DNA from: a bacterium
GTDB lineage: Bacteria; Margulisbacteria; WOR-1; O2-12-FULL-45-9; XYB2-FULL-48-7
Reading direction: 5' to 3'
Assembly: GCA_043812655.1 (NCBI GenBank)
Contig: JBDRLW010000008.1
Coordinates: 3,198-67,197, forward strand
DNA: 64,000 nt
In this document: positions 4,311 through 61,802 of the stretch, piece by piece
Layout: the number at the start of each line of letters is the position of its first letter
How positions within the stretch are numbered: the first letter of the stretch is position 1
The notes under the pieces: generated by a model
Database searches by the model: none
The model's input: only the letters and a program-made list of their open reading frames with translations
Told to the model about the DNA's origin: nothing
Made by a program: the position numbers and the translations under genes

Positions 4311-5965
4311 ACCGTAAAAACATCTTAATATTAATCGCTATGGCAGTTTGTTTATACTTTTTCAAACTCGGCAGTTTCTCATTGTACGACGCGGCGGAGA
4401 CGACTTACGGCGAATTCGTTAAAAACATGCTGGGGATGAAAGATTGGCTGACATTCCATTACAACGGACAGATAATCTTTGATAAGCCCCCGCTCTATTA
4501 TTGGTTCGCGGTCATCTTTTCTAAGTTGATCGGGTTCAATGAATGGGCCATGCGCCTCCCTGCTGCTATCTCCGGGCTCCTAACCGTAATCGTCACCTAT
4601 CTCCTCGGAAAAACATTTTACAATAAACAGGTTGGATTCCTTTCCGGCATAATTGTGATGACCGCTTTCCAATTTCTCGTCCAATCGCGGATCGCGGAAT
4701 TAGATGTTGTCCTCACCCTCCTTATGACGTCGGCAATTCTCTGTTTCTACTTGGGTTACACCAGCGGGGAGAAAAAATATTATACGTTAAGCTATGTCCC
4801 TATGGCCCTAGCCGTTTTGATCAAAGGGATCCTTGGCGTTGCCCTCCCCGGCTGCGCGATCTTTCTTTTTCTGTTGATCAAAGGAGAATTAAAGATCCTA
4901 AAAGAGATGCGGATCCTCTCTGGGATCGTAATCATCACCTTGATCGGCCTCCCCTGGTACCTGGCAGAATATCTCATTCATGGTCAAGTTTTTCTTGATT
5001 TTGCCTTGGGTTTTCTTTTCCTTTCCCGGTTCCAAGGCGCGGTTTGCGGCCATACCGGCCCTTGGTATTATTATTTCCTCGCTTTAATTTTAGGTTTTGC
5101 TCCCTGGTCGCAATTCATTCCGTTCGCTTTCTGGCGAGCATATAAAGAAGTTTCTTCTCCCAACTCCCAACTCCGAACTCCAATGCTTCTTTCCCTTTGC
5201 TTTGTTATCCCCGCCTTTATCGTCTTTTCGGTCGCTAAAACCAAGATACCTAACTACATCCTCCCCCTTTATCCTTTTCTGGCCATCATGGTGGGGAAGT
5301 TGTGGGCTGAAGTTTTATCGGAGCCTGAGAATAAATTCTCGGCTCCTCAAGAAAGCAAAACAAGAATTAATTCTCGTTTTGATAAAAATGGAACCGCGAA
5401 TTTATTCGCAGGTTCCTACGGAATAACATTATCCAACATCCTTTTTGCCGTTGTCATCGCCCTAATTTTCATTGGTTGTATCATGATCGCTAATTCCAAT
5501 TATCCAACACAATATATATCCCTACTCCCTAGCCTCTACACCCTAGCGGCTATCTTAGTCCTTGGCGGCGTGATCTCAATTACCGCTTATTTTCTAAAGA
5601 AATATACTCTTTCTTTTGCCGCTATCCCAACAATGGTTTTTATCATCACTTTGATCTTGACTGTCTGGGCCCTGCCCGAAGTTGAAAACTTTAAGGGAGC
5701 TAAAGAACTGGGAAAAGAATTAAATATTGTTATTAAACCAAATCAAATTATCGCCGCTTACAATGTCGGCAATCGCCCGAGTGTTGTTCTTCACAGCCCA
5801 AAGCCAGTTAAGTTCTTGGAGACCGAAAAGGAATTATCCGTTTATATTAATCATAAAAAAGGTTACGTGTTTACATTGGTTGAAGAATATGAAAAAATGA
5901 AGGAAAGATTGCCAGCCAGGACCAAGGTTTTGGCTAAAAAAGGCGACCTTTTAATATTATATTAA
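4307..5965 (+). CDS. GT83/PMT_2 family membrane glycosyltransferase (ArnT-like), paralog 1
   Basis: Polytopic membrane protein with N-terminal YDAAETTYGEFV...DKPPLYYWF, as in ArnT / dolichyl-phosphate-mannose transferases. Carries two in-frame repeat inserts (5159-5188 and 5321-5418). Confidence 0.7.
   Translation: MNRKNILILIAMAVCLYFFKLGSFSLYDAAETTYGEFVKNMLGMKDWLTFHYNGQIIFDKPPLYYWFAVIFSKLIGFNEWAMRLPAAISGLLTVIVTYLLGKTFYNKQVGFLSGIIVMTAFQFLVQSRIAELDVVLTLLMTSAILCFYLGYTSGEKKYYTLSYVPMALAVLIKGILGVALPGCAIFLFLLIKGELKILKEMRILSGIVIITLIGLPWYLAEYLIHGQVFLDFALGFLFLSRFQGAVCGHTGPWYYYFLALILGFAPWSQFIPFAFWRAYKEVSSPNSQLRTPMLLSLCFVIPAFIVFSVAKTKIPNYILPLYPFLAIMVGKLWAEVLSEPENKFSAPQESKTRINSRFDKNGTANLFAGSYGITLSNILFAVVIALIFIGCIMIANSNYPTQYISLLPSLYTLAAILVLGGVISITAYFLKKYTLSFAAIPTMVFIITLILTVWALPEVENFKGAKELGKELNIVIKPNQIIAAYNVGNRPSVVLHSPKPVKFLETEKELSVYINHKKGYVFTLVEEYEKMKERLPARTKVLAKKGDLLILY
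5159..5188. repeat. R3 repeat (tcttctcccaactcc-naactcc-naactcc) in frame in GT83 paralog 1
   Basis: Encodes SSPNSQLRTP. Confidence 0.7.
5321..5418. repeat. R5 double-hairpin repeat in frame in GT83 paralog 1
   Basis: GGAGCCtGAGAATaaaTTCTCGGCTCC...GGAACCGCGAATttaTTCGCAGGTTCC encodes SEPENKFSAPQESKTRINSRFDKNGTANLFAGS. Confidence 0.7.
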
Positions 5966-15350: not shown

Positions 15351-16991
15351 ATGCAAATAAAAAAGAACATATTAATATTTATTCTCTGCGTTTTCATTAC
15401 GATTTCATTCGTCACCCTCCCTCGTAACCCGTTGCAAAACGATGACGCCTCCCTTTACGCTCTGGCGGCAAAAAATGCGGTTGTTCATGGCCAGTGGCTG
15501 GCACAATTTATTTCTCCAGGTGATAGCTCATCATTTCTAGACAAGCCACCACTTGGCATCTGGCTTTTAGCCTGGTTACCAAAAATATTTGGCGTTAGCG
15601 AATTAACGATCCATTTCCCCAATGTCATTTATTATTCATTTCTTCTTCTTATCATATACTTGGCAATTTCATATTTAAGCTCACGAAAGCTAGCGCTCTA
15701 TTCAACTATTATTGCCGCCACTAGTCTTGGGCTTGTCGTCTACTCTCGGGCGCCAAAATTGGATGTTCTGCTAACTTTGTTTGTAATGACCGCTAACCTA
15801 GCCATTTATGCTTATTTAAAGAAAGATAAGCCTGTTTTTTTGTATCTCTTTACTCTCTCTATAATTTGCGGGACTTTGATCAAAAGCGGCTTTGGCCTGA
15901 TTTTCCCGGCCCTAACAATATTATTCTTACTAATTTTTAATCCTTATGCCAGAAAAAAGCTTTTTTCTGCCTTATTGTCTTTGCACTTCATATTAAATAT
16001 TTTACTCTTTTTATTGGTCACGGGAGGCGTTTTATCCTCTCAATCGATCAGCCTAAAAGATCAATGGCTTCCCTATCTTATTAGTATTTCCATTCAGAGC
16101 AAATATAATACAAGTTATTTAGGCTTTGGGTTTTATTATTCGATCATTGGCTTCTTGCTATTAATTCTCTTCCCTTGGTCTCCATTATGGCTGACTTCAC
16201 TTAAAAACCCACTCTCAAGAAAAAGTAATCGTCATACCCCACACTTAAGTGTGGGGTATCAAAAACTATCTCTTTCCTCGTTCTGCAATCTCTGGTTCTG
16301 GTCCAACGTTTTATTTCTATTATTCTTCTACCGCCAAAATGACCTGCGGACTTTTACTGTTTTTTGTCCGCCGCTGGCAATCTTGGCAGGGATACGCTTG
16401 GCTCTTCTCATCGGGAAACCTGCGACTAAACGTCGCGGTTTCCTCGCCCTTTTAGGCTGGAACAGTTTTTTACTCTTTGTTTTTGGCGCATTTACTGTTG
16501 CCTTATTATTTAATCCCCATAATGCGGAGGGATTCAATCTTTCTTCCGCAATCCAGCCTTTATCCCTTTTTGTTCTTTCATTAATAACAATGATGATCTT
16601 TTTCTGGCAACCGACCATTAAAATATTAACCATGACTTTTTTCCTGGTTTGCTTGGCTTATAGCCTTCTCTTCTGGAACAGCCAGGTTTTAGTTAATGCC
16701 TTTAATCCGGACGTTACTTGGCCAAAAACCATTGCTAACTATCAAGCCAAAGGCTATAAGTTCTATATTTACCGCCCACCGGACCGTCAGCTTTTTTATA
16801 GCCCCGATCTCTTTTACGTAGATTTTATGGCCGGCCCAGCCGACCAATATTTTTGGGATCCAATAATGTTAAAGGACGCCTTAAAGCTTAATGAAGCTAT
16901 TGTTCTTAGCGACACCAAGAGCTGGAGAAAATTAAAGATGACCGGAAAAACAATCGCTCAAGATAGCTACTCATGCTTAATTTTGAGATAA
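15351..16991 (+). CDS. GT83/GT39-like membrane glycosyltransferase, paralog 4 (more divergent)
   Basis: DASLYALAAKNAVVHGQWL...DKPPLGIWLLAW, polytopic, 546 aa. Confidence 0.55.
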   Translation: MQIKKNILIFILCVFITISFVTLPRNPLQNDDASLYALAAKNAVVHGQWLAQFISPGDSSSFLDKPPLGIWLLAWLPKIFGVSELTIHFPNVIYYSFLLLIIYLAISYLSSRKLALYSTIIAATSLGLVVYSRAPKLDVLLTLFVMTANLAIYAYLKKDKPVFLYLFTLSIICGTLIKSGFGLIFPALTILFLLIFNPYARKKLFSALLSLHFILNILLFLLVTGGVLSSQSISLKDQWLPYLISISIQSKYNTSYLGFGFYYSIIGFLLLILFPWSPLWLTSLKNPLSRKSNRHTPHLSVGYQKLSLSSFCNLWFWSNVLFLLFFYRQNDLRTFTVFCPPLAILAGIRLALLIGKPATKRRGFLALLGWNSFLLFVFGAFTVALLFNPHNAEGFNLSSAIQPLSLFVLSLITMMIFFWQPTIKILTMTFFLVCLAYSLLFWNSQVLVNAFNPDVTWPKTIANYQAKGYKFYIYRPPDRQLFYSPDLFYVDFMAGPADQYFWDPIMLKDALKLNEAIVLSDTKSWRKLKMTGKTIAQDSYSCLILR

Positions 16992-16998
16992 TATAATT

Positions 16999-18537
16999 AT
17001 GAACATTTGGCTATTGTTAGCAATTACAACTTTGTTACGGCTCTGTCTGGCGTCGCTTTTCCCTATCACCGCCGATGAATCATACTATTGGCTCTGGTCA
17101 AAGCATTTAAGCCTTTCTTATGTCGATCATCCGCCAATGGTGGCGGTCGTTAATTGGCTTTTCACCCACGGGACAGAAAACCTGATCATGCTCCGTCTGG
17201 GGACGGCAATAATTTCATTTTTGGTTAGCCTGCTCATCTATTTCCTAGCGAAAGAAGTTTTCAATGAAAAAGTCGCTTTCTGGTCGGTGGTCCTGTTCCA
17301 AATCCTTCCCCACTTCGTCGTCATCTGGTTGACGCAATTTGTCGAACTCCCGCTCGCTTTATTCTGGACTTTATCATTATTGATTCTGGCAAAAATATTC
17401 AATTTTTCCCATCCATCTTCTCCGAACCCCCAAATCCGAACTCCTAACTTATTATGGCTCGCGCTCGGCCTCACCATCGGCCTGGGTTCCCTTAGCAAAT
17501 ACACCATGTTCCTCTTCTGGCCGTGTCTTGGATTATTCTTTATTCTCTCTCCCGAAAACCGTTTCTGGCTTAAGCGAAAAGAACTTTACCTATGCCTTCT
17601 CCTAAGCCTATGCTTTTTTTCTCCAGTATTGATTTGGAATAACAACCATGCCTGGGCATCGTTTCTCTTCCATGGCAGTAAAGCTAGTGGAGATGCGTGG
17701 GGAACAAATTTTCTCCCCTTTGTTGGCGATCAATTAGTACACTTTACGCCTTTCCTTATTTTTACTCTTTTTGCTGTCGCTAAATCCTTCTTTCCAACTA
17801 ACAAACTAATGGCTCGACAAGCCCTTCGGCAAGCTCAGGGCAACATCGAGCGGAGTCGAGATGCTCGCCATCCCAGCCATCCCGAGCTCCGTCGAGGGAC
17901 AAACCAACAAACCAACCAACTCCCCCTCCTCCTCGCCTCGTTCTCCTTCCCCATCCTCTGCCTTTTCCTTTTCCTAAGCCTTAAGGTCAAGGTCTGGGCC
18001 CACTGGCCGGAGATCGGTTATATTGCGGCCATTCCCTTAACAATTAATTACTTAATTGAAAAGAATAAATCATTAAATAAATTCATTACTTGGATTGCAG
18101 GCTTCACCGGTTTAGTTCTAATTATTCTATTTTGGGTCACGCCAGCCATTCTCTTACATCAGAAAGATTACCTGGCTAATTATCAATTAACCAATTCAAT
18201 CCCCAAAGAGTATAAGCTCTTTGCCAAAACCAATGTCTCTTCGTCTCTCCTTGAGTTTTATACCAAGCGACCGGTTTATATGGCCACCGGTTTTTTAAAA
18301 GAGAACCATCTCTGGGGCGAAAAACAGTATGAACTCTGGGGAATTCCCAATTTAGTTAAAGGGGAAACTGTCATATATTATGGTGATGATACCCCTTTCT
18401 TTCAAGAAAAAGCCAAAACTAATTTCAGAAGCATTACAGAATTACCGGTTAAATTGTATTTAATTGAGGATTATATTACTAATAATTATAAGATGTTTAA
18501 ACTAGAAGGTTATAAAAGATCCGCTTCTCACCCTTAG
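16999..18537 (+). CDS. GT83/PMT_2 family membrane glycosyltransferase (ArnT-like), paralog 5
   Basis: ADESYYWLWSKHLSLSYVDHPPM motif. Carries in-frame repeat inserts R3 (17417-17448) and R4 (17803-17915). Confidence 0.65.
   Translation: MNIWLLLAITTLLRLCLASLFPITADESYYWLWSKHLSLSYVDHPPMVAVVNWLFTHGTENLIMLRLGTAIISFLVSLLIYFLAKEVFNEKVAFWSVVLFQILPHFVVIWLTQFVELPLALFWTLSLLILAKIFNFSHPSSPNPQIRTPNLLWLALGLTIGLGSLSKYTMFLFWPCLGLFFILSPENRFWLKRKELYLCLLLSLCFFSPVLIWNNNHAWASFLFHGSKASGDAWGTNFLPFVGDQLVHFTPFLIFTLFAVAKSFFPTNKLMARQALRQAQGNIERSRDARHPSHPELRRGTNQQTNQLPLLLASFSFPILCLFLFLSLKVKVWAHWPEIGYIAAIPLTINYLIEKNKSLNKFITWIAGFTGLVLIILFWVTPAILLHQKDYLANYQLTNSIPKEYKLFAKTNVSSSLLEFYTKRPVYMATGFLKENHLWGEKQYELWGIPNLVKGETVIYYGDDTPFFQEKAKTNFRSITELPVKLYLIEDYITNNYKMFKLEGYKRSASHP
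17417..17448. repeat. R3 repeat in frame in GT83 paralog 5
   Basis: tcttctccgaacccccaaatccgaactcctaac encodes SSPNPQIRTPN. Confidence 0.7.
17803..17915. repeat. R4 repeat (long form, about 110 bp) in frame in GT83 paralog 5
   Basis: aacaaactaATGGCTCGACAAGC...TCGCCATCCCAGCCATCCCGAGCTCCGTCGAGGGAcaaaccaacaaacc with a 41-bp internal segment absent from the other copy. Confidence 0.75.
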
Positions 18538-18679: not shown

Positions 18680-19588
18680 TTAAATATTCCCGGTATAAAC
18701 GTATTTCAATCCGGCTTCCAACCCAATCTCCTTGGCCTTAATAACGGTTTCCCTCGGAGTTGCCGGCCGGTCAAGCATTTTATAAGTGGGGTAAAAAGCC
18801 GAAACGTGCCAAGGAACATCATCGCCAAGATCGTTCTTAATAAAGCTGGCAATTTCCGTTAATTCTTCATTTGAATCATTCAAACCGGGAATAATCAAAG
18901 TCGTCAGCTCGATCCAGATCTTAAGATTCCTCATTAATTTAATCGTGTCTAAAACCGGCTGCAGTCGCCCACCACAATATTTTTTATAGTAATCGTCACT
19001 GAACGACTTCAGATCAATATTCGCCGCGTCAAGATATGGAGCGATCATTTTAGTCGGTTCCGGATTAGAATAGCCATTGGTCACAAAAATATTTTTCAGG
19101 CCCTTCGCGTTAGCAAGTTTAGCGCAATCATAGGCAAATTCAAAAAATATTGTCGGTTCGGTATAAGTATAGGAGATGCTCTGGCAATCGTTATCAATCG
19201 CTGCCTTAACAATTTCTTCCGGCGTTGTCTCTATGCCGCCAATTCCCCCCTCATCCCATCGTCCCCTCGTCTCATCGTCCTTTCGTCCTTTCGTTGCTTT
19301 CGAGATCCCAAAGTTTTGGCAGAAATCACAGCGGAAATTACAACCAACCGTTGCAATTGAATATGACCTTGTTCCCGGCAAAAAATGGTTGAGGGGCTTC
19401 TTCTCGATCGGATCAATAGCGGCTGAAATAACTTTACCGTAAACTAAGCTGTATAAAACACCCTTTTGGTTTTCCCTAACCCCACAAATCCCTCGTTTCC
19501 CATCAGCAATCAAACAATTATGCGGACAAAGTAAACACTGGACCCTGGACTCTGGACCCTGGACCCTATAAAAAAGTGCTTCCCTCAT
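18680..19588 (-). CDS. AmmeMemoRadiSam-system radical SAM enzyme (AmrS-like)
   Basis: VQCLLCPHNC N-terminal Cys cluster plus GCNFRCDFCQN radical SAM motif. Contains two in-frame inserts: R2 at the N-terminus and a 20-aa low-complexity insert. Confidence 0.7.
   Translation of the reverse strand: MREALFYRVQGPESRVQCLLCPHNCLIADGKRGICGVRENQKGVLYSLVYGKVISAAIDPIEKKPLNHFLPGTRSYSIATVGCNFRCDFCQNFGISKATKGRKDDETRGRWDEGGIGGIETTPEEIVKAAIDNDCQSISYTYTEPTIFFEFAYDCAKLANAKGLKNIFVTNGYSNPEPTKMIAPYLDAANIDLKSFSDDYYKKYCGGRLQPVLDTIKLMRNLKIWIELTTLIIPGLNDSNEELTEIASFIKNDLGDDVPWHVSAFYPTYKMLDRPATPRETVIKAKEIGLEAGLKYVYTGNI
19539..19568. repeat. R2 repeat (CTGGACCCTGGAnyCTGGACCCTGG) in frame in the AmrS N-terminus
   Basis: Encodes YRVQGPESRVQ, directly before the conserved CLLCPHNC. 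Confidence 0.7.
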
Positions 19589-20871
19589 TCACAGCCGCAG
19601 TTGCCGCCGCATTCGCACTCGCCGGCAAATTGGTCAAAAACTTTATCAAAAGCGATCGGTGATTGCTCCGCCGTCTTCATGTTTTTGAGAAGACCCAAGC
19701 CCGATTTAAGTTCTTCTTCACCAATGATATAAACATATTCCGCCTTCATTCGATCCGCACTTTTCATCTGTGCTTTGAGTGACTTGCCAAGATAATCAAG
19801 ATCGGCCGATAAACCTAAACTCCGCGCCTTCGTCACCAAATTAAACCCTAACTTCCTTGCTTCGTCTCCAAGGGTAGCAATATATAATTGTAATTTACCT
19901 TCATTTTCCATTTTTAATTTTTCATTTTTCATTATTTCCACGACTCGCTCAAGCCCCACCGCAAACCCGATCGCCGGAACTTTTTTCCCGCCCAGCTCTT
20001 CAACCAGGTTATCGTAGCGTCCCCCACCGCAGACAGCATTTTGCGCTCCCAAACTCTTGGAAACAATTTCAAAGGCCGTTTTGGTGTAATAATCTAAACC
20101 ACGGACCAAGCGCTTGTTTATCATGTGTTTTACTAACAAACTATCCAACAAACTAACTAACCGACTAAAATGCGTCTTACATTCTTCGCATAAATGATCG
20201 ACAGAAGCTGGAGCCTTTTCCAAATATTTCTGGCAATGCGCTTCTTTGCAGTCAAGGATCCTTAACGGATTTAACTCCACCCGCTCCTGACAATCGGCAC
20301 ACATGTCTTTAATATGTTCTTTAAAGTATTTTTGAATCGCGGCGCGATATCCCGGCTGGCAAACGGAACAGCCGACCGAATTAAGATTAACCGATAAGTC
20401 TTTCAGCCCGATCATTGAAAACAAATTAACAGCTAATTGGATCACTTCGGCATCAAGGAGCGGATCGGTCGAACCAAAAACCTCAACTCCCGCCTGGTGG
20501 AATTGCCGCTGGCGTCCGGCTTGCGGCCGTTCATAACGGAACATCGGTCCGATATAATAAAGCTTTGTTAAATTATCGGTTGAGATCAAATTGTTTTCTA
20601 AAGCCGCCCGAACAACCGGAGCTGTCTCTTCTGGACGCAGGGTTAAACTCCTCCCCTTACGGTCAGGGAAAGTGTACATCTCTTTTTTAACAATATCGGT
20701 AGTCGTGCCAATTGAGCGGGTAAATAGGTCGGTTGATTCAAATATAGGGGTGCGGATCTCCTGATAATTGTAAACGCCAAAGAGCGACCGGCAGCTCTCT
20801 TCCACAAACTGCCAAAGGGGCGTTTCGGCGGGAAGAATATCTTTTGTGCCACGGGGTGCTGTATATTTCAT
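19585..20871 (-). CDS. hisS: Histidine--tRNA ligase
   Basis: Class II aaRS motifs and MKYTAPRGTKDILP as in the HisS N-terminus. The long ORF is trimmed to the ATG at 20871 because the upstream 100 aa overlap thiF and are not HisS-like. Confidence 0.85.
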   Translation of the reverse strand: MKYTAPRGTKDILPAETPLWQFVEESCRSLFGVYNYQEIRTPIFESTDLFTRSIGTTTDIVKKEMYTFPDRKGRSLTLRPEETAPVVRAALENNLISTDNLTKLYYIGPMFRYERPQAGRQRQFHQAGVEVFGSTDPLLDAEVIQLAVNLFSMIGLKDLSVNLNSVGCSVCQPGYRAAIQKYFKEHIKDMCADCQERVELNPLRILDCKEAHCQKYLEKAPASVDHLCEECKTHFSRLVSLLDSLLVKHMINKRLVRGLDYYTKTAFEIVSKSLGAQNAVCGGGRYDNLVEELGGKKVPAIGFAVGLERVVEIMKNEKLKMENEGKLQLYIATLGDEARKLGFNLVTKARSLGLSADLDYLGKSLKAQMKSADRMKAEYVYIIGEEELKSGLGLLKNMKTAEQSPIAFDKVFDQFAGECECGGNCGCE

Positions 20872-25629: not shown

Positions 25630-26521
25630 ATGGCTCTTTTTTTTTAAAATCCGGCAGATAAGCGTCACTGCTTGACAAGTGCTGGATATATATATTTTGA
25701 AACCCTTTGTCCTGGGCGTGATCGACAACTTTCTCATATTCAGCCGCCGTTAATTTTCGAGCTAACTCGGGAAATTCCTTCGCCCGGTGCTGCGGACTAT
25801 ACTGCGACATCAAGCTCAACCAAATCTCAGTTGAAATACCGGCCAAAAAATCCAAGACCTTAAAGCTATCAGCAATATTATTCGGTAAAACAAGGTGTCT
25901 CACTATCAACGCTCTTCTCCCAACTCCACACTCCCGACTCCTAACTACCTGCCCCCACATCTCCCTCACCCCAACCGTTACCGTCTCAACATAATTCTCT
26001 GCCCCAGAATATTTAAACGCGTTATCATTATCAAAATATTTAATATCCGGGAGGTAAATATCAACCAGGCCGTCAAGCCTTTGCAAAAGCTCCAGCGAAT
26101 CATAACCCCCGGTATTGTAGACGATCGGCAACTCCAACCCTTCTTTTTTGGCTAGCATCAAGGCGTCTATGACCTGTGCGCCATAATGCGTTGGTGAAAC
26201 CAGGTTTATATTTTCCGCTCCCCTGTCAGCCAGATCAAGCATTATTTTAACCAGCTCATTAATCGTCACCTCGCGGCCAAGTCCTTGCTGGCTAACTTGA
26301 TAATTCTGGCAATAAACGCATTTAAGCGAACAACCGGAAAAAAAGACCGTCCCCGACCCTCTTTGGCCAGAAATTTGCGGTTCTTCACCATGATGAAGAC
26401 AATAAGAGGCAACTTTAATCTTATCACCTGCCCCGCACTTTCCCCCAAACTGACTAACAAACTTACCAACTCCCCTCTCTACCCCGCACCGATGGCCGCA
26501 TAAATTGCATTTAGTCACCAT
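25616..26521 (-). CDS. Radical SAM protein, PflX family (pyruvate-formate-lyase-activase homologue)
   Basis: CNLCGHRCGV N-terminal cluster plus CSLKCVYCQN radical SAM motif. Carries an in-frame R3 repeat insert (25913-25945). Confidence 0.6.
   Translation of the reverse strand: MVTKCNLCGHRCGVERGVGKFVSQFGGKCGAGDKIKVASYCLHHGEEPQISGQRGSGTVFFSGCSLKCVYCQNYQVSQQGLGREVTINELVKIMLDLADRGAENINLVSPTHYGAQVIDALMLAKKEGLELPIVYNTGGYDSLELLQRLDGLVDIYLPDIKYFDNDNAFKYSGAENYVETVTVGVREMWGQVVRSRECGVGRRALIVRHLVLPNNIADSFKVLDFLAGISTEIWLSLMSQYSPQHRAKEFPELARKLTAAEYEKVVDHAQDKGFQNIYIQHLSSSDAYLPDFKKKEPFSSQ
25913..25945. repeat. R3 repeat in frame (opposite orientation) in the PflX-like radical SAM gene
   Basis: tcttctcccaactccacactcccgactcctaac, translated on the minus strand as VRSRECGVGRRA. 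Confidence 0.7.
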
Positions 26522-26545: not shown

Positions 26546-27106
26546 ATGGCCAAACCAACTATTATTCTCGCTTCCGCCTCACCCAGAAGAAAAGAATTAT
26601 TAAAACGCTTAGTTGATAATTTCACGGTCATCCCCAGCAGTGTCGATGAAAAACTGATCACTGCCCCTACGCCGGAAGAGCTGGCAGAAAAGACGGCTCT
26701 TGCTAAAGCCAACGATGTCGCCAAAAATGAAAAAGATGCCATTGTGATAGGAGCCGACACAATTGTAATTCTTGGCGATATTATCCTGGGCAAGCCGAAA
26801 GATAATGACGAAGCCTATTTGATGCTTAAAAGTTTATCCGGCACTACCCATAAGGTTGTAACTGGTCTGGCAGTTATTGATACTAAAACCGGCAAAACAC
26901 AAAGCACTTATGTTGTCTCCCAAGTCAAGATGAAAAATGTTTCTGATCAAGCGATCAAAGATTATATTAGCACCGGCAGTCCCTTAGATAAAGCCGGTGG
27001 TTACGGCGTCCAAGAGATCGAAGACGCGTTTATGGCCAAGATCGATGGCGATCTTGATAATGTCGTTGGTTTACCAGTCAAAACTTTAAAGGAGATGCTG
27101 AAATGA
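26546..27106 (+). CDS. maf: Maf-like nucleoside triphosphate pyrophosphatase
   Basis: ILASASPRRKELL N-terminus and Maf-family length (186 aa). Confidence 0.8.
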   Translation: MAKPTIILASASPRRKELLKRLVDNFTVIPSSVDEKLITAPTPEELAEKTALAKANDVAKNEKDAIVIGADTIVILGDIILGKPKDNDEAYLMLKSLSGTTHKVVTGLAVIDTKTGKTQSTYVVSQVKMKNVSDQAIKDYISTGSPLDKAGGYGVQEIEDAFMAKIDGDLDNVVGLPVKTLKEMLK

Positions 27107-27663
27107 AAACCATTTGGAAACCGGGTACGATGATCTATCCTGTCCCTGCCGTTTTGGTCACTTGCGGTGATAGTCCCGAAAATTACAACATCATCACCAT
27201 TGCCTGGACCGGGACGATCTGTTCCGAACCGGCCATGAGTTATATTTCGATCCGCCCTTCCCGCCATTCTTATGAGATCATAAAACGAACTAAAGAATTT
27301 GTTATTAACCTAACAACGGAAAGATTAGCCAAGGCAACCGACTTTTGCGGCGTTAAATCTGGTCGGGATATAGATAAATTTAAACATTTAAAATTAACGC
27401 CGGAGCCAGCGACAAAAGTCAAAGCCCCGTTGATCGCCGAAAGTCCGCTTAACATTGAATGTCAGGTGACAGATCTTATCCCACTCGGCTCGCACGATAT
27501 GTTTATAGCCAAAGTCCTTTGTATTCATGCCGACAAAGATTATCTGGATAAACATGGCGCCTTCATGTTCAGCAAGACCAAACCGATCGCTTACGTCCAC
27601 GGCAAATATTATTCACTCGGAAAAGAGTTGGGCCATTTCGGGTATTCGGCCAGGAAAAAGTAA
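27103..27663 (+). CDS. Flavin reductase-like FMN-binding protein
   Basis: Flavin_Reduct-like domain (YPVPAVLVTCGD...AWTG). ATGA overlap with maf. Confidence 0.6.
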   Translation: MKTIWKPGTMIYPVPAVLVTCGDSPENYNIITIAWTGTICSEPAMSYISIRPSRHSYEIIKRTKEFVINLTTERLAKATDFCGVKSGRDIDKFKHLKLTPEPATKVKAPLIAESPLNIECQVTDLIPLGSHDMFIAKVLCIHADKDYLDKHGAFMFSKTKPIAYVHGKYYSLGKELGHFGYSARKK

Positions 27664-27960: not shown

Positions 27961-27967
27961 GATTTAG

Positions 27968-28124
27968 ACCCTCACCCGCTAATGCTTAAGACTCCCCCCT
28001 CTCCCATAGGGAGAGGGTAACTCGCTTGTTTTATGTTTTATTTTTATACCCCCTCTACCTCCCTGCCTGCCGGCAGGCAGGTGGGAGAGGGGGTGCTATT
28101 GTTTGGCGTTGACGGGGGTGAGGG
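27968..28124. mobile_element. R1 composite element containing a nested R6 palindrome
   Basis: Runs accctcaccc...cccctctcccatagggagaggg...cctgcctgccggcaggcagg...gggggtgagggc, with TIR-like ends. Confidence 0.75.
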
Positions 28125-28135
28125 CTGTGAGGTTT

Positions 28136-29537
28136 TTACATCACCGGCAGGTTCGAGCTTCCCATTAAATATTCGTCTACCGCTCTGGCGGCTTTACGGC
28201 CTTCGGATATTGCCCAGACTATAAGTGATTGGCCTCGTCTCATATCACCAGCGGCAAATATTCCCTTAATGGAAGTCATATAATTTTGATTAGTTTTGAA
28301 GTTTCCCCGCTGATCAAGCTCGATCTTTAGATCAGCGATCGGTTCGGGATGTAAGAAACCTAAGGCCAGAAAAACCAGGTCGGCTTCTATCGTAAATTCA
28401 GAGTGAGGTATTTCTTTCAAATTCAGATCAACTTTTACACATTGCAATTTCTGGACCCTGGATCCTGGACCCTGGAATTCTTTTGTCGCAATCGACCACT
28501 GCCGTTCACAGCCTTCTTCATGACTGCTGGAAGTCTTAAGGATTAGCGGATACTTTGGCCATGGCTGGTCAACCGGCCGAGTTTCGCTTGGCTGCGGCAA
28601 GAGTTCTATTTGTACCACACAACTGGCCCCTTGGCGCTGAGCGGTTCCTACACAGTCTGAACCTGTATCACCCCCACCGATCACCACCACTTTTTTTCCT
28701 TTAGCATCAATTAATGAGTTCGTTGGTATTTTTTCTCCGGCAATTGTTTTATTGGCTTGGGTCAGATATTCCATCGCAAAGTAAACACCTTTGAGTTCCC
28801 GGCCGGGAGCTTTTAAGTCGCGGGGAATTCTGGATCCTCCGGCAAAGACAATTGCCTCAAATTCTTTTTGGAGCTTAGAAACAGGATAATCATCACCTAT
28901 CTTAATTTTAGTTTTAAAAGTGATCCCCTCTTCTTCCCAGATCTTGGTCCGACGATCGATGACTTTCTTTTCCAGCTTAAAATCAGGGATGCCGTAGCGC
29001 ATGATCCCGCCCAGTTTTTCGTCTTTTTCAAATACTGTAACACTATGGCCCGCTTGATTTAATTGCGCGGCGCAAGACAGTCCAGCTGGGCCAGAGCCAA
29101 CAACCGCTACTTTTTTACCGGTCGTAACTTTAGGCTGTCTGGCCTTGATCTGGCCGTGATCGAACATTTCTTCAACTATCCCCAATTCATTTTCCCTGAT
29201 CGTCACCGGGTCATCGTTGATCCCCAAGACACAAGAAAATTCGCACGGCGCCGGGCAAACTCGGCCGGTGATCTCTGGCAGATTATTGGTCGCGTCAAGG
29301 AGTTCCCAAGCTCTTTCCCACGATTTTACCGACGTCAGGTCATTCCACTCCGGGATATAATTACCAAGAGGACAGCCGCCATGGCAGAATGGGGTCCCGC
29401 AATCCATACAGCGGGTGGCCTGTTCCGCCGTCTCGTCTTCCGACCTAAGTTTAAAAACCCGGTCGAAATCTTTTACCCGCTCGCAAACCGGGCGGTAAGC
29501 GGTTTTGGTCCTTTTTATTTTTATGAACCCCTTTGGA

Positions 29538-29545
<8 letters not shown>
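28136..29545 (-). CDS. gltD: Glutamate synthase (NADPH) small subunit
   Basis: N-terminal Fe-S Cys motifs and GSGPAG FAD/NAD fold. Immediately downstream of gltB. Carries an in-frame R2 repeat insert. Confidence 0.85.
28450..28474. repeat. R2 repeat in frame in gltD
   Basis: ctggaccctggatcctggaccctgg encodes FQGPGSRVQ. Confidence 0.7.
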
Positions 29546-33947
<4,402 letters not shown>

Positions 33948-33983: not shown

Positions 33984-35318
33984 CTACAGTATCGGTAAAT
34001 ATTTTTTTATCTCATACTCCGTGACCTGGATCCTGAAATCATTCCATTCTTGCTTCTTAATTGCAATAAATCTTTCAAAGCAATGGTCACCCAAAGCTTC
34101 GCGCACCAACCCGCTTTTTTCGGTCACGGCGATCGCTTCACCCAAACTGGCTGGCAACGATTTCACGCCCCGCTCCGCCCGTTCTTCATCGTTCAAGTGA
34201 TAAAGGTTCAACTCCATCGGCTCCGGCAGTTTATACCCTTCCTCGATCCCTTTCAAGCCGGCTTGTAACATAACGGCGAACTGTAGATATGGATTTCCTG
34301 AAGGATCTGGGCAGCGAAGCTCCATCCTGGTCGCGACTTCTTTGCCTGGCTGATACATCGGTACACGGACCAAAGCTGAACGGTTTCGTCTTGACCAAGC
34401 GATATAAACCGGCGCTTCGAAGCCCGGGACTAAGCGTTTATAAGAATTAACCCAGGGAGCTAAAATGGAAATCATTTCCGGAGCGTGTTTTAAGATCCCG
34501 GCAATATATGATTTACCGACGGAAGACAAATGATATTTATCATTCGCGTCGTAGAACGCGTTAACCTTTCCTTTGAATAACGATTGGTGGCAGTGCATGC
34601 CGGAACCGTTTTGGCCAAAGATCGGCTTGGGCATGAAGGTCGCGTAGACCCCATTCTTAGAGGCGATCTCTTTAACCGTTAACCGGTAAGTCACGGTGTT
34701 ATCGGCCATCTTCAAAGCGTCGGCGTAGCGCATGTCGATCTCGTGTTGGCTGGGAGCAACTTCGTGATGGCTGTATTCAACCGTGATCCCAAGTTTCCTT
34801 AACGCGAAAACCGTATCTCGCCTAAGGTTTGAGGCCATATCGAGCGGCGTTAGATCAAAATAACCACCATTGTCGAGGACTTCTGTTCCTTTGGAATCTT
34901 TAAAGTAAAAGTATTCGAGTTCCGGCCCGATGTAGCAATGGTCAAAACCCATCTTTTTCATTTTATCCAGGGCTCTTTTTAAAACGTAGCGGGGATCGCC
35001 TTCATATGGTTTATGCTTACCGGCTGAAGGCTGTAAAATGTCGCAGATCATCCTGGCTACCGGTTTATCTTCCGGCCGCCACGGCAAGATAGCGAAAGTC
35101 TCAGGATCCGGCATCGCGATCATGTCCGACTCTTCGATCGCCTGGAAACCGGTGATCGAGGAACCGTCAAACCCCATTCCCTGGGTTAGCGCCCCTTCAA
35201 GTTCATCTGGGCCAACGGCAAAACTCTTGAGTATCCCGTTAAGATCAGTGAACCAGAACCTAATAAACTCGACCCCATTATCCTTAACCTGTTTTAAGAC
35301 ATCTTCCTTCGTAGTCAT
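33984..35318 (-). CDS. glnA: Glutamine synthetase type I
   Basis: 444 aa, GS catalytic motifs (NGSGMHCHQS). Sigma54 promoter upstream. Confidence 0.9.
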   Translation of the reverse strand: MTTKEDVLKQVKDNGVEFIRFWFTDLNGILKSFAVGPDELEGALTQGMGFDGSSITGFQAIEESDMIAMPDPETFAILPWRPEDKPVARMICDILQPSAGKHKPYEGDPRYVLKRALDKMKKMGFDHCYIGPELEYFYFKDSKGTEVLDNGGYFDLTPLDMASNLRRDTVFALRKLGITVEYSHHEVAPSQHEIDMRYADALKMADNTVTYRLTVKEIASKNGVYATFMPKPIFGQNGSGMHCHQSLFKGKVNAFYDANDKYHLSSVGKSYIAGILKHAPEMISILAPWVNSYKRLVPGFEAPVYIAWSRRNRSALVRVPMYQPGKEVATRMELRCPDPSGNPYLQFAVMLQAGLKGIEEGYKLPEPMELNLYHLNDEERAERGVKSLPASLGEAIAVTEKSGLVREALGDHCFERFIAIKKQEWNDFRIQVTEYEIKKYLPIL

Positions 35319-35355
35319 AGGTCAACACCCCCATAATTTAAATCCAATAGAGTAA

Positions 35356-35373
35356 AAGCAAATCAATTGCCGC
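35356..35373 (-). promoter_or_regulatory. Sigma54 (-24/-12) promoter for glnA(-gltBD)
   Basis: Minus-strand cGGCAAttgatTTGCTt has GG-N10-GC spacing and matches TGGCAC-N5-TTGCW, about 40 nt upstream of the glnA ATG. Confidence 0.55.
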
Positions 35374-35466
35374 TCTTAAACCCGGTCATTTTACGACAAT
35401 TATGTAGAATATTTGGGGTGTTTTTACGTTTTTGTATGGATATATTTAGGGTTACGTTCGGAACCT

Positions 35467-35552
35467 GAGAATAAAATTCTCGGTTCCTCAAAAAATGGAA
35501 CCGCGACTTTCAGCCTTGCCTGCCGGCAGGCAGGTCGCAGGTTCATACCAAA
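35467..35552. repeat. R5 repeat with an R6 palindrome nested in its second hairpin loop
   Basis: cggaacctgagaataaaattctcggttcc...ggaaccgcga[ctttcagccttgcctgccggcaggcagg]tcgcaggttc. Confidence 0.7.
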
Positions 35553-35554
35553 TC

Positions 35555-37648
35555 TTACAATATTGTTAAAAGTTCCTGGTATTTTGCCATCGGCCAAAAT
35601 CCGTCCGCTACCAGAGTTTCAGCTTTATCAATGCTCTCGCGCAGATCGGCCAAAGCATTAGCCCCATTTTTGGCATACAATTTGGCTTTTTTCTCCAAGT
35701 TCTCTTCCTGTTCGCAAACAACGATCGCTTTCTCCAGCCCCTTGATCGCCTCTTTTACATCAGCATACAGGTACGAGGCTACTTTCAAATCGGCGGCCAT
35801 GGCGCTGTTTTTGGATGTCGCCTTAACGGCTTCGCCTAACGCCGCGATCTGGGCTAAAACCGCGGGCAGGACCAGCGTTTTGGCAATGTTCAAACCGGCT
35901 TTTAGTTCAACATCTTTGATCTTAATGTACGCATCCAGCTTGATCTCCACTTTTGAATGGAGCTCCCTCTTGGAAAGAACGCCATATTTTTCAAAAAGCT
36001 CAACACTCTCTTTCTCCAGCATTAAATCCAGAGAGTCTGGAGTGTTCTTGGCGTTAGGCAGTCCCCGTTTAGCCGCTTCCTTGTGCCACTCTTCAGAATA
36101 ATTGTTCCCTTCAAAACGCACCTTCTTGGTTTCTTTCAGGATATCCTTCATGACCAGGATCGCTTTTTCCTCAATGTTCTTCCCTTTTTTCGCTGACAGC
36201 CGGCTGGCTATTTCATCATAGCCGTAAGCCACGATCAGATTAAGGGTGGTCGCGGCTTCCGCGCAGTTCTGGGATGAACCGACAGCGCGGAATTCGAACT
36301 TATTGCCGGTAAAAGCGAGTGGCGATGTCCGATTTCTGTCAGATGTATCCTTGGCCACTTTAGGCAGGTTCTGGACATCTAAATTGATGTGGGAAAGGCT
36401 CTTTTCGCTCACTTCGTTGCCAACCCCTTCGATCTCATCCATCAATCTGGCTAAATATTCACCGAGATAAACGGACATGATAGCAGGAGGAGCTTCGTTC
36501 GCACCAAGCCGGTGGTCGTTCCCCGCATCAGCAACTGCCGCCCGCAGGAGGCCGCCGAATTTATTGACTCCAAGAAGGATCGCGCCTAAGGTGAGCAGGA
36601 AATTAATGTTTTTGATCGGCGAATCGGACGGTTCAAGATAATTCGTCCCGCTTTCATCTCCGAGTGACCAATTAAAGTGTTTACCAGAACCATTGACCCC
36701 AGCAAAAGGTTTTTCATATAGTACGGCAACCATCCCATGCTTTTCGGCCACCCGGCGGATGATCTCCATCAGCTGTAAGTTGTGGTCGATAGCCAGGTTG
36801 ACCTCCTCATAAAGCGGAGCGACCTCGAACTGGTTGGGAGAAACTTCATTATGCCTGGTCTTCGAAGGAATACCGTGCCGATAAAGCTCGGCATCAAAAT
36901 CTTCCATGAACATCATTACTTTGTCTTTGATCGAACCAAAATAATGGTCTTCGAGCTGTTGGCCTTTGGCCGGAGCCGCGCCAAAAAGCGTCCGGCCGGT
37001 AATGCGCAGGTCAGGCCGCGTATCAAAAAGTTCTTTGGAAACCAGGAAATATTCCTGCTCGGGCCCACCGTAAACCTTCATTTTTTTAACTGTGTTACCC
37101 AATAGTTTTTGCAGTTTTGTTGCCGATCCGGTCAAGGCCTTCATGGAACGAAGAAGAGGGGTTTTCATGTCCAGGACTTCGCCGGTCCAGGAAAGGTAAA
37201 CGGTCGGGATAACTAGGGTCTTAGTATCCCCTGCTTCCAGTAAAAATGCCGGGCTGGTCGGGTCCCACGCGGTATAACCTCTGGCTTCAAAGGTAGAGCG
37301 GATCCCGCCAGAAGGGAAGCTGGAGGCATCCGGTTCCGACTGGATCAGTTGTTTCGCGCTGAAACGCTCGACCATCTCCCCATCTTTGCCGTAGCTAAGG
37401 AAAGCATCATGCTTTTCAGCCGTACCGCCGCGTTGGGGTTGGAACCAGTGGGTAAAATGGGTGGCTCCATTCTCCATTGCCCATTCTTTCATCGCGTGGG
37501 CAACATCACGGGCGATCATTTCATCGAGGGGTTCGCCACCATCTAAAGTGGCAACTAATTTACTATAAACTTCTTTGCTTAATTTATCTTTCATCACCTT
37601 GCGGCTGAAAGTCAGTTCTCCGAATATTTGGCTAGCTGGTTTTGTCAT
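35555..37648 (-). CDS. glnN: Glutamine synthetase type III (GlnN)
   Basis: About 700 aa GSIII architecture. Start trimmed to MTKPASQIF, which has an AGGAGA SD. Confidence 0.8.
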   Translation of the reverse strand: MTKPASQIFGELTFSRKVMKDKLSKEVYSKLVATLDGGEPLDEMIARDVAHAMKEWAMENGATHFTHWFQPQRGGTAEKHDAFLSYGKDGEMVERFSAKQLIQSEPDASSFPSGGIRSTFEARGYTAWDPTSPAFLLEAGDTKTLVIPTVYLSWTGEVLDMKTPLLRSMKALTGSATKLQKLLGNTVKKMKVYGGPEQEYFLVSKELFDTRPDLRITGRTLFGAAPAKGQQLEDHYFGSIKDKVMMFMEDFDAELYRHGIPSKTRHNEVSPNQFEVAPLYEEVNLAIDHNLQLMEIIRRVAEKHGMVAVLYEKPFAGVNGSGKHFNWSLGDESGTNYLEPSDSPIKNINFLLTLGAILLGVNKFGGLLRAAVADAGNDHRLGANEAPPAIMSVYLGEYLARLMDEIEGVGNEVSEKSLSHINLDVQNLPKVAKDTSDRNRTSPLAFTGNKFEFRAVGSSQNCAEAATTLNLIVAYGYDEIASRLSAKKGKNIEEKAILVMKDILKETKKVRFEGNNYSEEWHKEAAKRGLPNAKNTPDSLDLMLEKESVELFEKYGVLSKRELHSKVEIKLDAYIKIKDVELKAGLNIAKTLVLPAVLAQIAALGEAVKATSKNSAMAADLKVASYLYADVKEAIKGLEKAIVVCEQEENLEKKAKLYAKNGANALADLRESIDKAETLVADGFWPMAKYQELLTIL

Positions 37649-37696
37649 GTGATATTTCTCCTTTTCACAGCATTTTAACATTATGCTTCAATAGAA

Positions 37697-45476: not shown

Positions 45477-46205
45477 TTATAAATTAATATCCAACTGCGT
45501 GGTTAGCGTTGGTTTCGCCCCATTGTTATATTTGCCATAAGCACAGAGAACAGAGGTATTCGCTGAAAATGCGTATGAAAAACCGGCAAACAAGGCACCA
45601 AGTGACGAGTCGCCTCCAGCATAATCAACCGAAGCCCATATTTTATCGGTCAGCATTTTATCCCAAGTTAAAATAACACCCGCTCCGTCAGAGCCTAAAG
45701 TAGTTTTATTTCCCGCAAAGTAGCCAGCCGATATTCGGCCAAAGCTAAAGGTTTTTGCCCCAACACCATAAAGAATATTTTGGTCGGTCGCCCCTTTAAG
45801 CAAACCAAAGCCATACCCACCAACCGCTAAAGCCGGGAAAATATCGCTTTCAGCAATCCCATATTTAGCATTAAAAACCAAAGAACTTCCGGCCACTCCC
45901 TGGGGCAGAAAGGCATCAGCTCCAATTTCAACTCCCGAAATTACACCATAAGTTAAACCCAGGTCGGTCGGAAATTGCTGGCCGCCAGAACCCTTATCTT
46001 CAACTGAAAAATAATCATCAATCCCCAGATGCCATGTCCCCTTCGCCTGGATATCGGTCGACGGATTCCAGATCTGGGTCGACGGCGTCGCCAGCGCAGC
46101 CCCTCCCACTAACAAACTAACCAACAAACAAATGGCTCGACAAGCTCGCCATCCCAGCCATCCCGAGCTCCGTCGAGGGACTAACAGACTTTTCATGATT
46201 TTCAT
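45477..46205 (-). CDS. Putative outer-membrane porin co-transcribed with amt-glnK
   Basis: Signal peptide then alternating amphipathic beta-strands. Start trimmed to the ATG at 46205 (AAGGAGGG SD). An R4 repeat copy is translated within the signal-peptide region. Confidence 0.4.
   Translation of the reverse strand: MKIMKSLLVPRRSSGWLGWRACRAICLLVSLLVGGAALATPSTQIWNPSTDIQAKGTWHLGIDDYFSVEDKGSGGQQFPTDLGLTYGVISGVEIGADAFLPQGVAGSSLVFNAKYGIAESDIFPALAVGGYGFGLLKGATDQNILYGVGAKTFSFGRISAGYFAGNKTTLGSDGAGVILTWDKMLTDKIWASVDYAGGDSSLGALFAGFSYAFSANTSVLCAYGKYNNGAKPTLTTQLDINL
46108..46185. repeat. R4 repeat (short form) in the porin gene signal-peptide region, translated from the opposite strand
   Basis: ctaacaaactaaccaacaaacaaATGGCTCGACAAGCTCGCCATCCCAGCCATCCCGAGCTCCGTCGAGGGActaaca. 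Same plus-strand orientation as the 17.8-kb copy, but the host gene is on the minus strand. Confidence 0.75.
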
Positions 46206-61079: not shown

Positions 61080-61097
61080 GTGGTGTGAAGCGATTTT

Positions 61098-61736: not shown

Positions 61737-61802
61737 AACTACTCCTCCTTAAATGGAATGTTGGGATTATTATACTAAAGTACCATTCGTCTAGCAAGCG
61801 TT

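Follow-up and report, generated by a model that had tools for sequence, protein, structure and literature searches.

The window analyzed here, by which we mean the whole stretch of 64,000 nucleotides (assembly GCA_043812655.1, contig JBDRLW010000008.1, positions 3,198 to 67,197), comes from a Margulisbacteria-like bacterium and carries two copies of R6, a palindrome of 20 nt, each of them inside a hairpin of another repeat family. One of the copies lies in the spacer between the stop of glnN (glutamine synthetase type III, 35555..37681) and the start of glnA (glutamine synthetase type I, 33984..35318), both genes being on the minus strand. This spacer of 236 bp is mostly taken up by a repeat of the R5 family, copy B (35460..35546), a doublet in which one hairpin unit of ~27 nt is present twice in inverted orientation. 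The first unit, H1 (35460..35487, plus strand, GGAACCTGAGAATAAAATTCTCGGTTCC), folds as an uninterrupted hairpin, GGAACCTGAGA-ataaaat-TCTCGGTTCC, and is separated by TCAAAAAAT from the second unit, H2 (35497..35545), which has the unit orientation on the minus strand. The left arm of H2, GGAACCGCGA (35497-35506), and its right arm, TCGCAGGTTC (35535-35544 or 35545), enclose a loop of 28 nt that consists of the native loop CTTTCAG (35507-35513) and, at the loop/stem junction, of the 21 nt CCTTGCCTGCCGGCAGGCAGG (35514..35534), i.e., R6 with one extra T. In the predicted fold of copy B (106 nt; -42.5 kcal/mol, z = -4.7), R6 forms its own stem within the H2 loop. The initial annotation of this DNA had described an R5 hairpin loop interrupted by R6 downstream of glnN, and both the anatomy and the coordinates were borne out; it had also called the inserted palindrome perfect, whereas this copy has the additional T and keeps only a 16-nt perfect core, TGCCTGCCGGCAGGCA. 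With up to two mismatches allowed, the core has two matches in the window versus 0.00 in 100 shuffles, and the H2 arms with a variable gap likewise have two versus 0.00 in shuffles. The 21-nt variant was found once more, in a viral contig (L242; L numbers denote loci throughout), within a heptamer tract of the TCCCAAA type.

The other copy of R6 is the exact 20-nt perfect palindrome, CCTGCCTGCCGGCAGGCAGG (28062..28081), and its presence inside a composite of the R1 family, as had been noted initially, was confirmed. It occupies the tip of an R1-type hairpin (28047..28095, CCCCCTCTACC...GGGAGAGGGGG), in which it replaces a loop of ~3 nt, and in the fold of this segment R6 caps the R1 hairpin coaxially (z = -5.2). 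The whole composite (27967..28125) is built of inverted units, CCCTCACCC-N17-hairpin followed by hairpin-N20-GGGTGAGGG, and lies between two convergent genes, a flavin-reductase gene (27103-27663, plus strand) and a gltD-like gene (28136-29545, minus strand). The same family (D2) is represented in the window, between 7543 and 63724, by nine uninterrupted R1 hairpins, mostly with 3-nt loops.

The long H2 loop of copy B could be compared with that of another R5 copy in the window, copy A (5320..5416, plus strand; H1 5320-5346, central palindrome 5356-5381, H2 5390-5416). The initial comparison with a short-looped copy near 5321-5418 holds, because the arms of H2 are identical in the two copies and the loop of copy A is 6 nt (ATTTAT) compared to 28 nt in copy B. 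The consensus of the unit is GGAACCTG(A/C)GA-loop-TC(T/G)CGGTTCC, with units beginning GGAACC. When metagenomes were scanned for the H2 arms separated by 0-30 nt, 16 contigs with unrelated flanks were obtained, and a relaxed search of the window and these contigs gave a census of 30 units: 12 have loops of 6 nt, 16 have loops of 7 nt, one (L164) has a loop of 26 nt with a different insert of 19 nt, and one is copy B. Thus, R6 is inside an R5-type unit in 1 of 30 cases only. In L167 the same H2 arms enclose exactly the loop ctttcag (...GCGA-ctttcag-TCGC...) with no insert; therefore, H2 of copy B corresponds to this loop variant with 21 nt added where loop and stem meet, and no bases are duplicated. 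Copy B is a nested insertion and not a variant family, as had been proposed; R6-bearing units are far from the majority form. H1 + H2 pairs also occur at seven metagenome loci, and the R5 units themselves are inserted hairpin elements, forming REPIN-like doublets, so that the glnN locus holds one small element nested in another. Viral contigs were also scanned for the R5 unit; the three matches are G+C-rich and apparently coding, and were discarded as chance.

The main result of the analysis is that the 20-mer is a discrete unit common, letter for letter, to very distant bacteria and viruses. R6 had initially been regarded as one of the local repeat families of this DNA, a view that does not hold given identical letters across many phyla. 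In a genome collection with one genome per species (596 Gb), for which we calculated a chance expectation of ~0.5 matches, the exact 20-mer was found in at least 120 stretches, each from a different assembly and two complete genomes included; another 35 stretches came from viral contigs. Control palindromes of equal composition, the inside-out GGCAGGCAGGCCTGCCTGCC and CCGTCCGTCCGGACGGACGG, had 0 matches each in the viral contigs. The carriers among the matches listed span about ten phyla and comprise many groups of Patescibacteria (candidate phyla radiation, CPR), Bacteroidota, Omnitrophota, Planctomycetota, Verrucomicrobia, Elusimicrobia, Ignavibacteria, Thermodesulfovibrionales, Bdellovibrionales, and metagenome-assembled genomes (MAGs) labelled Gamma- or Deltaproteobacteria; cyanobacteria are not represented in the at least 120 carrier assemblies listed. 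Cultured Bacteroidota account for at least eight isolates, including Winogradskyella echinorum, Flagellimonas yonaguniensis, Flavivirga sp., Longitalea luteola, Aquiflexum lacus, Agriterribacter humi, and Aestuariivivens sediminis. The G+C content of the hosts ranges from 30 to 72%. Exact R6 was absent from cultured phage and PLSDB plasmid records (BLAST, 9.6 Gb), where partial matches at chance level were the only ones, and no paper with the 20-mer, its 13-mer core, the second palindrome described below or the encoded peptides was found in the literature searched. It should be noted that taxonomic labels can mislead: the carrier L143 (CAYUUU010000001.1) is labelled "uncultured Gammaproteobacteria", has 31% G+C, and the named homologues of its GatB are from Candidatus Shapirobacteria. 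Other "Gammaproteobacteria" labels on carrier MAGs may be wrong, too.

R6 is G+C-rich, its composition being (CCTG)2CC.GG(CAGG)2, with no stop codon in any frame and no coding capacity. Its flanks differ between loci (more than 150 unrelated contexts), and no larger conserved element surrounding it was found, the flanks being unique. Flank positions beyond +/-1 pair at 25%, i.e., at background, and a bias (A/T) is seen at +/-1 only; the borders of R6 are thus sharp. Copies are solitary, and the one array detected has no spacers, so the repeats with unique spacers that characterize CRISPR arrays are not seen. This array, in a viral contig (L038:3915-4124), consists of ten head-to-tail R6-like units of 21 nt (CCATGCCTACCGGCAGGCAGG), with several more variants nearby.

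Filled and empty sites in non-coding DNA differ by an exact gain of 20 bp without target duplication. In L145, L076, L157, and L122, a tRNA 5' fragment equals the intact downstream tRNA copy plus exactly R6, and neighbouring tandem units in L043 and L135 show the same exact gain. There is no general flanking direct repeat that would represent a target-site duplication; a 7-nt direct repeat across the junction, present at 10.4% of R6 sites versus 0.5% of controls, results from insertion into tandem tracts of period 7. Both R6 copies of L143, one within gatB and one just 3' of it, are absent from the orthologous sites in L235, L236, and L238. For the window itself, the glnN loci L001-L004 (GlnN 90-92% identical) have neither R5 nor R6 and their intergenic DNA is not alignable; in L001, the closest relative for which DNA was available, glnN and glnA are separated by 15 bp. 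These comparisons and the census of R5 units show R6 to be an insertion and not an ancestral loop variant, with sharp 20-bp borders and an exact gain at non-coding sites.

Hairpin loops had been suggested as preferred targets, and this stands as an enrichment and fails as a rule, most sites showing no obvious stem. A perfect stem of at least 6 bp surrounds 9.2% of 163 independent R6 sites in other genomes versus 1.9% of random positions, and for stems of at least 7 bp the values are 5.5% and 0.7%, i.e., a 5-8-fold enrichment of enclosing stems. R6 is also found within R6, close to its apex, in four cases (L057, L081, and, as variants, L060 and L067); in L057 and L081 the inner copy lies one base off the centre of the outer one, in its apical CCGG. 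Approximately 15 of 167 sites are in or beside tRNA genes or fragments, and at about a dozen loci R6 occupies a position in the D, anticodon, variable or T loop. Just one tRNA bearing R6 is apparently intact, a tRNA-Met of a phage contig (L029:2239-2330), which is still called by ARAGORN and in which R6 makes up a 20-nt long variable arm. A possible tRNA within a tRNA was seen in L054:4000-4225, where an intact tRNA-Met splits a tRNA-like sequence (acceptor GTCAGGG/CCCTGAC) into two halves and R6 lies in the D-arm of the outer 5' half.

About 10% of R6 sites are inside genes. Positions deep in long open frames hold 14% of R6 sites versus 54% of random positions, and the depletion of R6 from long open frames is about four-fold when A+T-rich loci are considered. 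Across R6, the genes read xLPAGRQx in gatB (L143), rpsF (L086), scpB (L092), an rfbB-like dehydratase gene (L060), ftsK (L052), and genes for GT39-like membrane proteins (L082, L110), and the Ribosomal_S6, ScpB, and GDP_Man_Dehyd profiles span the palindrome. The GatB protein of L143 has DD-LPAGRQV-VY at the position where orthologues of 80-95% identity have DD-GQT-VY, and compared with 95%-identical orthologues its loop has 4 additional aa. Coding sequence is thus depleted of R6, but in-frame copies persist in the surface loops of essential proteins.

Besides a four-helix-bundle family (5 loci), the only cross-phylum protein family near R6 is the small stand-alone GIY-YIG nuclease (PF01541, ~85 aa). 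A GIY-YIG open reading frame (ORF) lies within 150 nt of R6 at 6 loci versus ~0.7 expected, according to our own calculation, even with the locally inflated gene density. The order in L036, L076, L145, L157, and L116 (the last with an R6 variant) is an R6-bearing tRNA 5' fragment, the GIY-YIG ORF, and an intact tRNA; in these loci and in L099, R6 is 16-40 nt upstream of the GIY-YIG start, with target-derived sequence between. Cassettes defined by a 5' fragment, ORF, and intact copy of that same tRNA are located at L076:2100-2480, L145:3680-4061, and L036:490-816 and, on the minus strand, at L157:5800-6400, L116:2500-3300, and L113:2150-2850; the tRNAs are those for Lys, Gly, Leu, Met, and Gln. 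L113 additionally has a duplicated tRNA 3' fragment that carries inserts in the T-loop. The cassette looks like a homing element aimed at the anticodon region of tRNA genes, displacing the original 5' half. In L099:2751-4892, R6 (read as PACRQAG) is in frame in hsdS, the specificity gene of a type I restriction system, between the two target-recognition halves, and a complete GIY-YIG domain follows ~40 nt after it in an ORF that is open over 714 codons. Another cassette (L078) carries a different G+C-rich palindrome at the same D-loop position. When GIY-YIG cassettes were sampled from viral contigs irrespective of R6, one locus was obtained, which was already in the set. A GIY-YIG ORF was also seen in a 23S rRNA intervening sequence, at the helix tip of domain I, in a Saccharibacteria MAG (L132:4550-5300, minus strand), flanked by the stem GAGCCCTAC.../...GTAGGGCTTC. 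This GIY-YIG clade is related to the structure-specific nuclease Slx1, and enzymes of the I-TevI type cleave DNA a set distance away from where insertion takes place; both points make a structure-directed nuclease a reasonable mobiliser. However, the link between R6 and GIY-YIG genes could be indirect.

We assign a probability of about 70% to the interpretation that R6 is a miniature, non-autonomous palindromic insertion element that is mobilised in trans and has an unusually wide host range. Such an element would have landed twice in small hairpin repeats of this host, once at the loop/stem junction of an R5 unit downstream of glnN and once in an R1 hairpin 3' of gltD, where it took up the apical loop. 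It may be moved by a structure-directed enzyme acting on extruded or single-stranded stem-loops, which would explain the targets, namely hairpin loops, the apex of R6 itself, and loops of tRNA genes, whereas selection for transposition competence combined with horizontal transfer would hold the 20 letters invariant. The leading candidates for the enzyme are the small GIY-YIG nucleases, which are encoded by selfish genes in the tRNA and 23S rRNA gene loops of carriers; if R6 is a trans-mobilised element, their involvement is a tentative proposal with odds somewhat below even. The most comprehensive formulation is that CCTGCCTGCCGGCAGGCAGG is an undescribed mobile element among the smallest known, i.e., 20 bp with neither internal sequence nor target duplication, invariant to the letter in about ten phyla (Margulisbacteria included) and in their viruses, inserting into stem-loops (tRNA-gene loops, other repeats, and R6 itself) in a structure-directed manner, mechanistically coupled to the small stand-alone GIY-YIG nucleases of tRNA and rRNA gene loops, and belonging to an unrecognised cross-phylum pool of mini-hairpins that includes TCCGCCAGCTGGCGGA and the R1 type; we regard this combination as falling a little short of an even chance.

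Several observations weigh against an element mobilised in trans. The matches listed include one stretch per assembly, and a copy number this low is unusual for a transposing repeat; import or a scar fits it as well as transposition does. The majority of R6 sites have no obvious enclosing stem. Approximately 95% of the sites have no GIY-YIG gene within 2.5 kb, there is none in the 64-kb window, and no enzyme is tied to R6. No orthologous exact empty site for either R6 copy of the window was obtained from L001-L004. In gatB of L143, R6 replaces ~8-10 nt with a net gain of 12 nt, which is not a clean insertion, and relatives already carry GGGCAGG at this spot. The second copy in L143 is in a block of 78 nt that is lacking at the three orthologous loci and consists of a duplicated alternative gatB 3' end of 57 nt, foreign-looking and equal to the allele of another lineage, followed by 15 nt, R6, and one base. 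In L116, a 19-nt variant of R6 replaces 19 nt of the tRNA fragment. The events in gatB, 3' of gatB, and in L116 look like break repair or recombination and not like cut-and-paste. The ongoing activity that the initial annotation had read from the nesting is no more than a possibility for the source genome: the window has only two R6 copies, one of them already mutated.

R6 could also be a cis-acting module or a repair scar of small GIY-YIG homing genes and not an independent element, an explanation that we consider unlikely on balance but serious. The nuclease would cut a loop of a structured-RNA gene, or another target, between a few and some tens of bases upstream of the point of ORF insertion, R6 would fill the cut, block re-cleavage, and be co-converted, and solo copies would be remnants after loss of the ORF. 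The position of R6 upstream of the GIY-YIG start at six loci (one of them a variant), the other palindrome at the equivalent D-loop spot of L078, the recurrence of GIY-YIG genes near R6 across phyla, and the distant cutting by I-TevI-type enzymes all agree with a scar. Such an origin is harder to reconcile with the ~95% of sites that have no GIY-YIG gene nearby, including both copies in the window, and with the copies in heptamer tracts, gatB, and rpsF that bear no trace of an ORF. In addition, no case of R6 halves flanking an ORF was found in 1.9 Mb of loci, and, if the link is indirect, the cassettes may simply make dispensable tRNA-like fragments that R6 can occupy. An improbable alternative is a selected function of the R6 hairpin, for instance in extending a terminator, in stabilising RNA or in binding a protein, with spread by horizontal transfer and recombination and not by transposition. 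The copies of the window are just 3' of gltD and glnN, H2 is followed by AUUUUUU in the RNA of the glnN (minus) strand, one L143 copy is 15 nt past the gatB stop, and purifying selection could account for the 20 letters being perfectly conserved. However, R6 itself is not followed by a T-run (position +1 alone shows a bias, with T at 41%), the prediction of terminator-like sites gave none at 35200-35700, and no Rfam family matched anywhere in the window at the gathering threshold. Moreover, copies are located in ORFs, tRNA fragments, heptamer tracts, and R6 itself, and a site conserved at 20 of 20 positions over about ten phyla would require an equally conserved binding protein; we know of no such protein.

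The invariance of R6 in assemblies of unrelated organisms also raises the question of a technical artefact, and ligated adapters (a linker dimer) or an assembler product would yield a perfect palindrome. This is very unlikely because the carriers, judged by record names, include metaSPAdes- and MEGAHIT-style as well as long-read-style MAGs, a complete-chromosome MAG, a single-cell genome, and the at least eight isolates, and because diverged variants and the 10-unit tandem array exist. The flanks are native and continuous (tRNA, gatB, rpsF), genic copies are in frame, and no exact copy occurs in the 9.6 Gb of cultured phage and plasmid records. Even less credence can be given to the long H2 loop as an ancestral variant of an R5 sub-family. 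The window has only two full R5 copies and is by itself undecisive; the loops of 6-7 nt in 28 of 30 units, the single R6-bearing unit, the same loop without insert in L167, and the independent occurrence of R6 in more than 150 unrelated contexts contradict this variant. Least credible of all is a local origin by slippage or snap-back synthesis on CCTG/CAGG repeats, to which the internal composition of R6 and the GGGCAGG of gatB relatives could point. The same 20 letters with the same borders are found in more than 150 unrelated flanks, also in A+T-rich genomes (G+C 30-45%), and the inside-out palindrome made of the same repeats is absent; both findings contradict local origin as a general explanation.

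An element mobilised in trans remains our preferred interpretation of R6. R1-type hairpins, CCCCTCTCC-loop-GGAGAGGGG, with the companion CCTCACCCC, are also present in a Chitinophagaceae MAG and a Peregrinibacteria MAG (L062:6936 and 7376; L119:212 and 301); therefore, at least one further repeat family of the window is cross-phylum. A second palindrome, TCCGCCAGCTGGCGGA, is common to unrelated genomes; it is present at seven of the R6 loci and, in A+T-rich viral contigs, at the tips of hairpins (L050:3333, L054:2858, L055:161, L071:967, L079:2963 and 4469, L147:1248, L149:435; viral L179-L233). It is often 30-50 nt or less from R6, or caps a longer hairpin of the host. Its 55 viral stretches exceed by a few-fold a rough chance estimate (15-25) for a 16-mer in G+C-rich contigs; only the A+T-rich occurrences at hairpin tips are taken as meaningful, and many of the G+C-rich matches are probably due to chance.

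Several properties of the R5 family had escaped the initial annotation, namely that H1 and H2 are inverted copies of one unit, that a third unit exists, and that copy A and the third unit are intragenic. Copy A is in frame within a GT39 glycosyltransferase gene (4307-5965), where it lengthens a loop by ~31 residues; the closest GT39 orthologue found (P0242 / L243) lacks it, and the loop is short in this orthologue and in most homologues. A unit of 27 nt equals nine codons (EPENKFSAP in GT39). In the fold of copy A, H1 pairs with H2 in one long hairpin (-43 to -46 kcal/mol, z about -7). The third unit (16415..16442, plus strand; GAAACCTGCGA-ctaaacg-TCGCGGTTTC) is in frame (KPATKRRGF) in a paralogous GT39-like ORF (15351-16991), so that both GT39/ArnT-like paralogues of the window carry a unit in a similar inter-helix loop. 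The GT39 homologues P0244 and P0245 carry further peptides derived from the unit at this loop (EPETKVSVP, KPETKRLGF), which suggests an insertion hot spot. The spacer between R5 units can carry another palindrome with the core GAATTAATTC, as in CAAAACAAGAATTAATTCTCGTTTTG (window 5356-5381) and GGTCATTGCAGAATTAATTCTGCAATGACC (L171:6150-6190).

With regard to other features, the window contains degenerate heptamer tracts of the CAACTCC, CTGGACC, and AACTAAC types (5153-5181, 17416-17444, 25913-25941, 19538-19563, 28451-28476, 20132-20168, and 46108-46132), which resemble the short tandemly repeated repetitive (STRR) sequences of cyanobacteria. One of these tracts (5153-5181) keeps the reading frame of the GT39 gene, and the orthologue L243 lacks this tract. 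A direct repeat of 192 nt with 72% identity (61096-61287 and 61801-61992) has a spacing of 705 nt. In minus-strand order, glnA is followed by gltB (29538-33947) and then by the gltD-like gene. The deposited GlnN protein (P0001), to which GlnN of the window is 100% identical and which is encoded on a contig of 122 kb, has 697 aa; hence, the start of glnN is probably internal to the ORF 35555..37681. The nearest relatives of GlnN (85-92% identity) are from MAGs of Candidatus Margulisbacteria/Saganbacteria, and the GT39 homologues agree with a Margulisbacteria-like host, which is not a cyanobacterium.

Very small palindromic repeats are usually lineage-specific, and the mobility of the smallest among them is an old question, which the presence of R6 in at least eight cultured Bacteroidota strains makes testable in the laboratory. 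R6 offers clean filled/empty pairs, defined targets (hairpin loops, tRNA loops, and its own apex), and a candidate enzyme family. Its copies in annotated genes (gatB, rpsF, ftsK, and GT39) and in tRNA-like fragments can mislead gene callers, tRNA finders, and assemblers; a k-mer common to unrelated genomes invites chimeric joins in metagenome assemblies. R6 could also mark the flow of DNA between very distant bacteria of the same habitats.

Among known systems, the small dispersed repeats (SDRs) of heterocyst-forming cyanobacteria are similar to R6 by description. SDR4-6, as Elhai and co-workers are said to have described in 2008, are hairpin repeats of 21-27 nt that were inferred to be mobile and non-autonomous; they are reportedly nested in each other and in other repeats, coexist with heptameric STRR sequences, and are high-copy within one cyanobacterial group. 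The host lineage of the window is the sister of Cyanobacteria. R6, with 20-21 nt, is likewise a hairpin nested in R5, R1, and itself; unlike the SDRs as described, it is identical over about ten phyla and viruses and low-copy per genome. Rickettsia palindromic elements (RPEs), reportedly described by Ogata and co-workers in 2000, are said to be in-frame palindromic selfish DNA of 100-150 bp, tolerated in surface loops and restricted to Rickettsia. The in-frame copies of R6 (LPAGRQ in gatB, rpsF, ftsK, and scpB) and of the R5 units (EPENKFSAP in GT39) leave the ORFs intact in a similar manner, whereas R6 is 20 bp long and spread over phyla. Miniature inverted-repeat transposable elements (MITEs) are ~100-400 bp long, with terminal inverted repeats around an internal region and target-site duplications, and they are commonly nested. 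R6 shares with them the lack of autonomy, the inverted ends, and nested insertion, and differs in being 20 bp long with neither an internal region nor target duplication.

Mitochondrial palindromes insert into repeats, RNA genes, and coding sequence, and co-occur with GIY-YIG/LAGLIDADG homing genes; to our knowledge, no cross-phylum invariant unit has been reported for such clusters. In fungi, short G+C-rich palindromes (G+C clusters, double-hairpin elements, and microsatellite-like repeats) are found in A+T-rich mitochondrial genomes (PMC7218506). These clusters are organellar and lineage-specific in sequence, in contrast to R6, which is invariant across phyla. Repetitive extragenic palindromes (REPs) and their inverted doublets (REPINs) are 20-40 bp long and mobilised by REP-associated tyrosine transposases (RAYTs) of the IS200/IS605 type (Y1); REPs are non-autonomous, imperfect, and species-specific palindromes headed by GTAG or CGTC, number tens to hundreds of copies per genome, flank the RAYT gene, and are proposed to move as single-stranded hairpins (PMC3116915, PMC3733652). 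An inverted doublet that folds into one long hairpin, the trait of REPINs, is found in R5 and not in R6. R6 differs further from REPs as a perfect palindrome that starts with CCTG and ends with CAGG, without the GTAG/CGTC head, and as a pan-phylum sequence of low copy number (two in 64 kb, and one stretch per assembly among the matches listed). RAYT was not among the families recurring near R6 sites, although no search aimed at it was made. Taken together, R6 behaves like the smallest palindromic selfish DNA, similar to SDRs, REPs, and RPEs, with a host range and an invariance unlike those of any of them.

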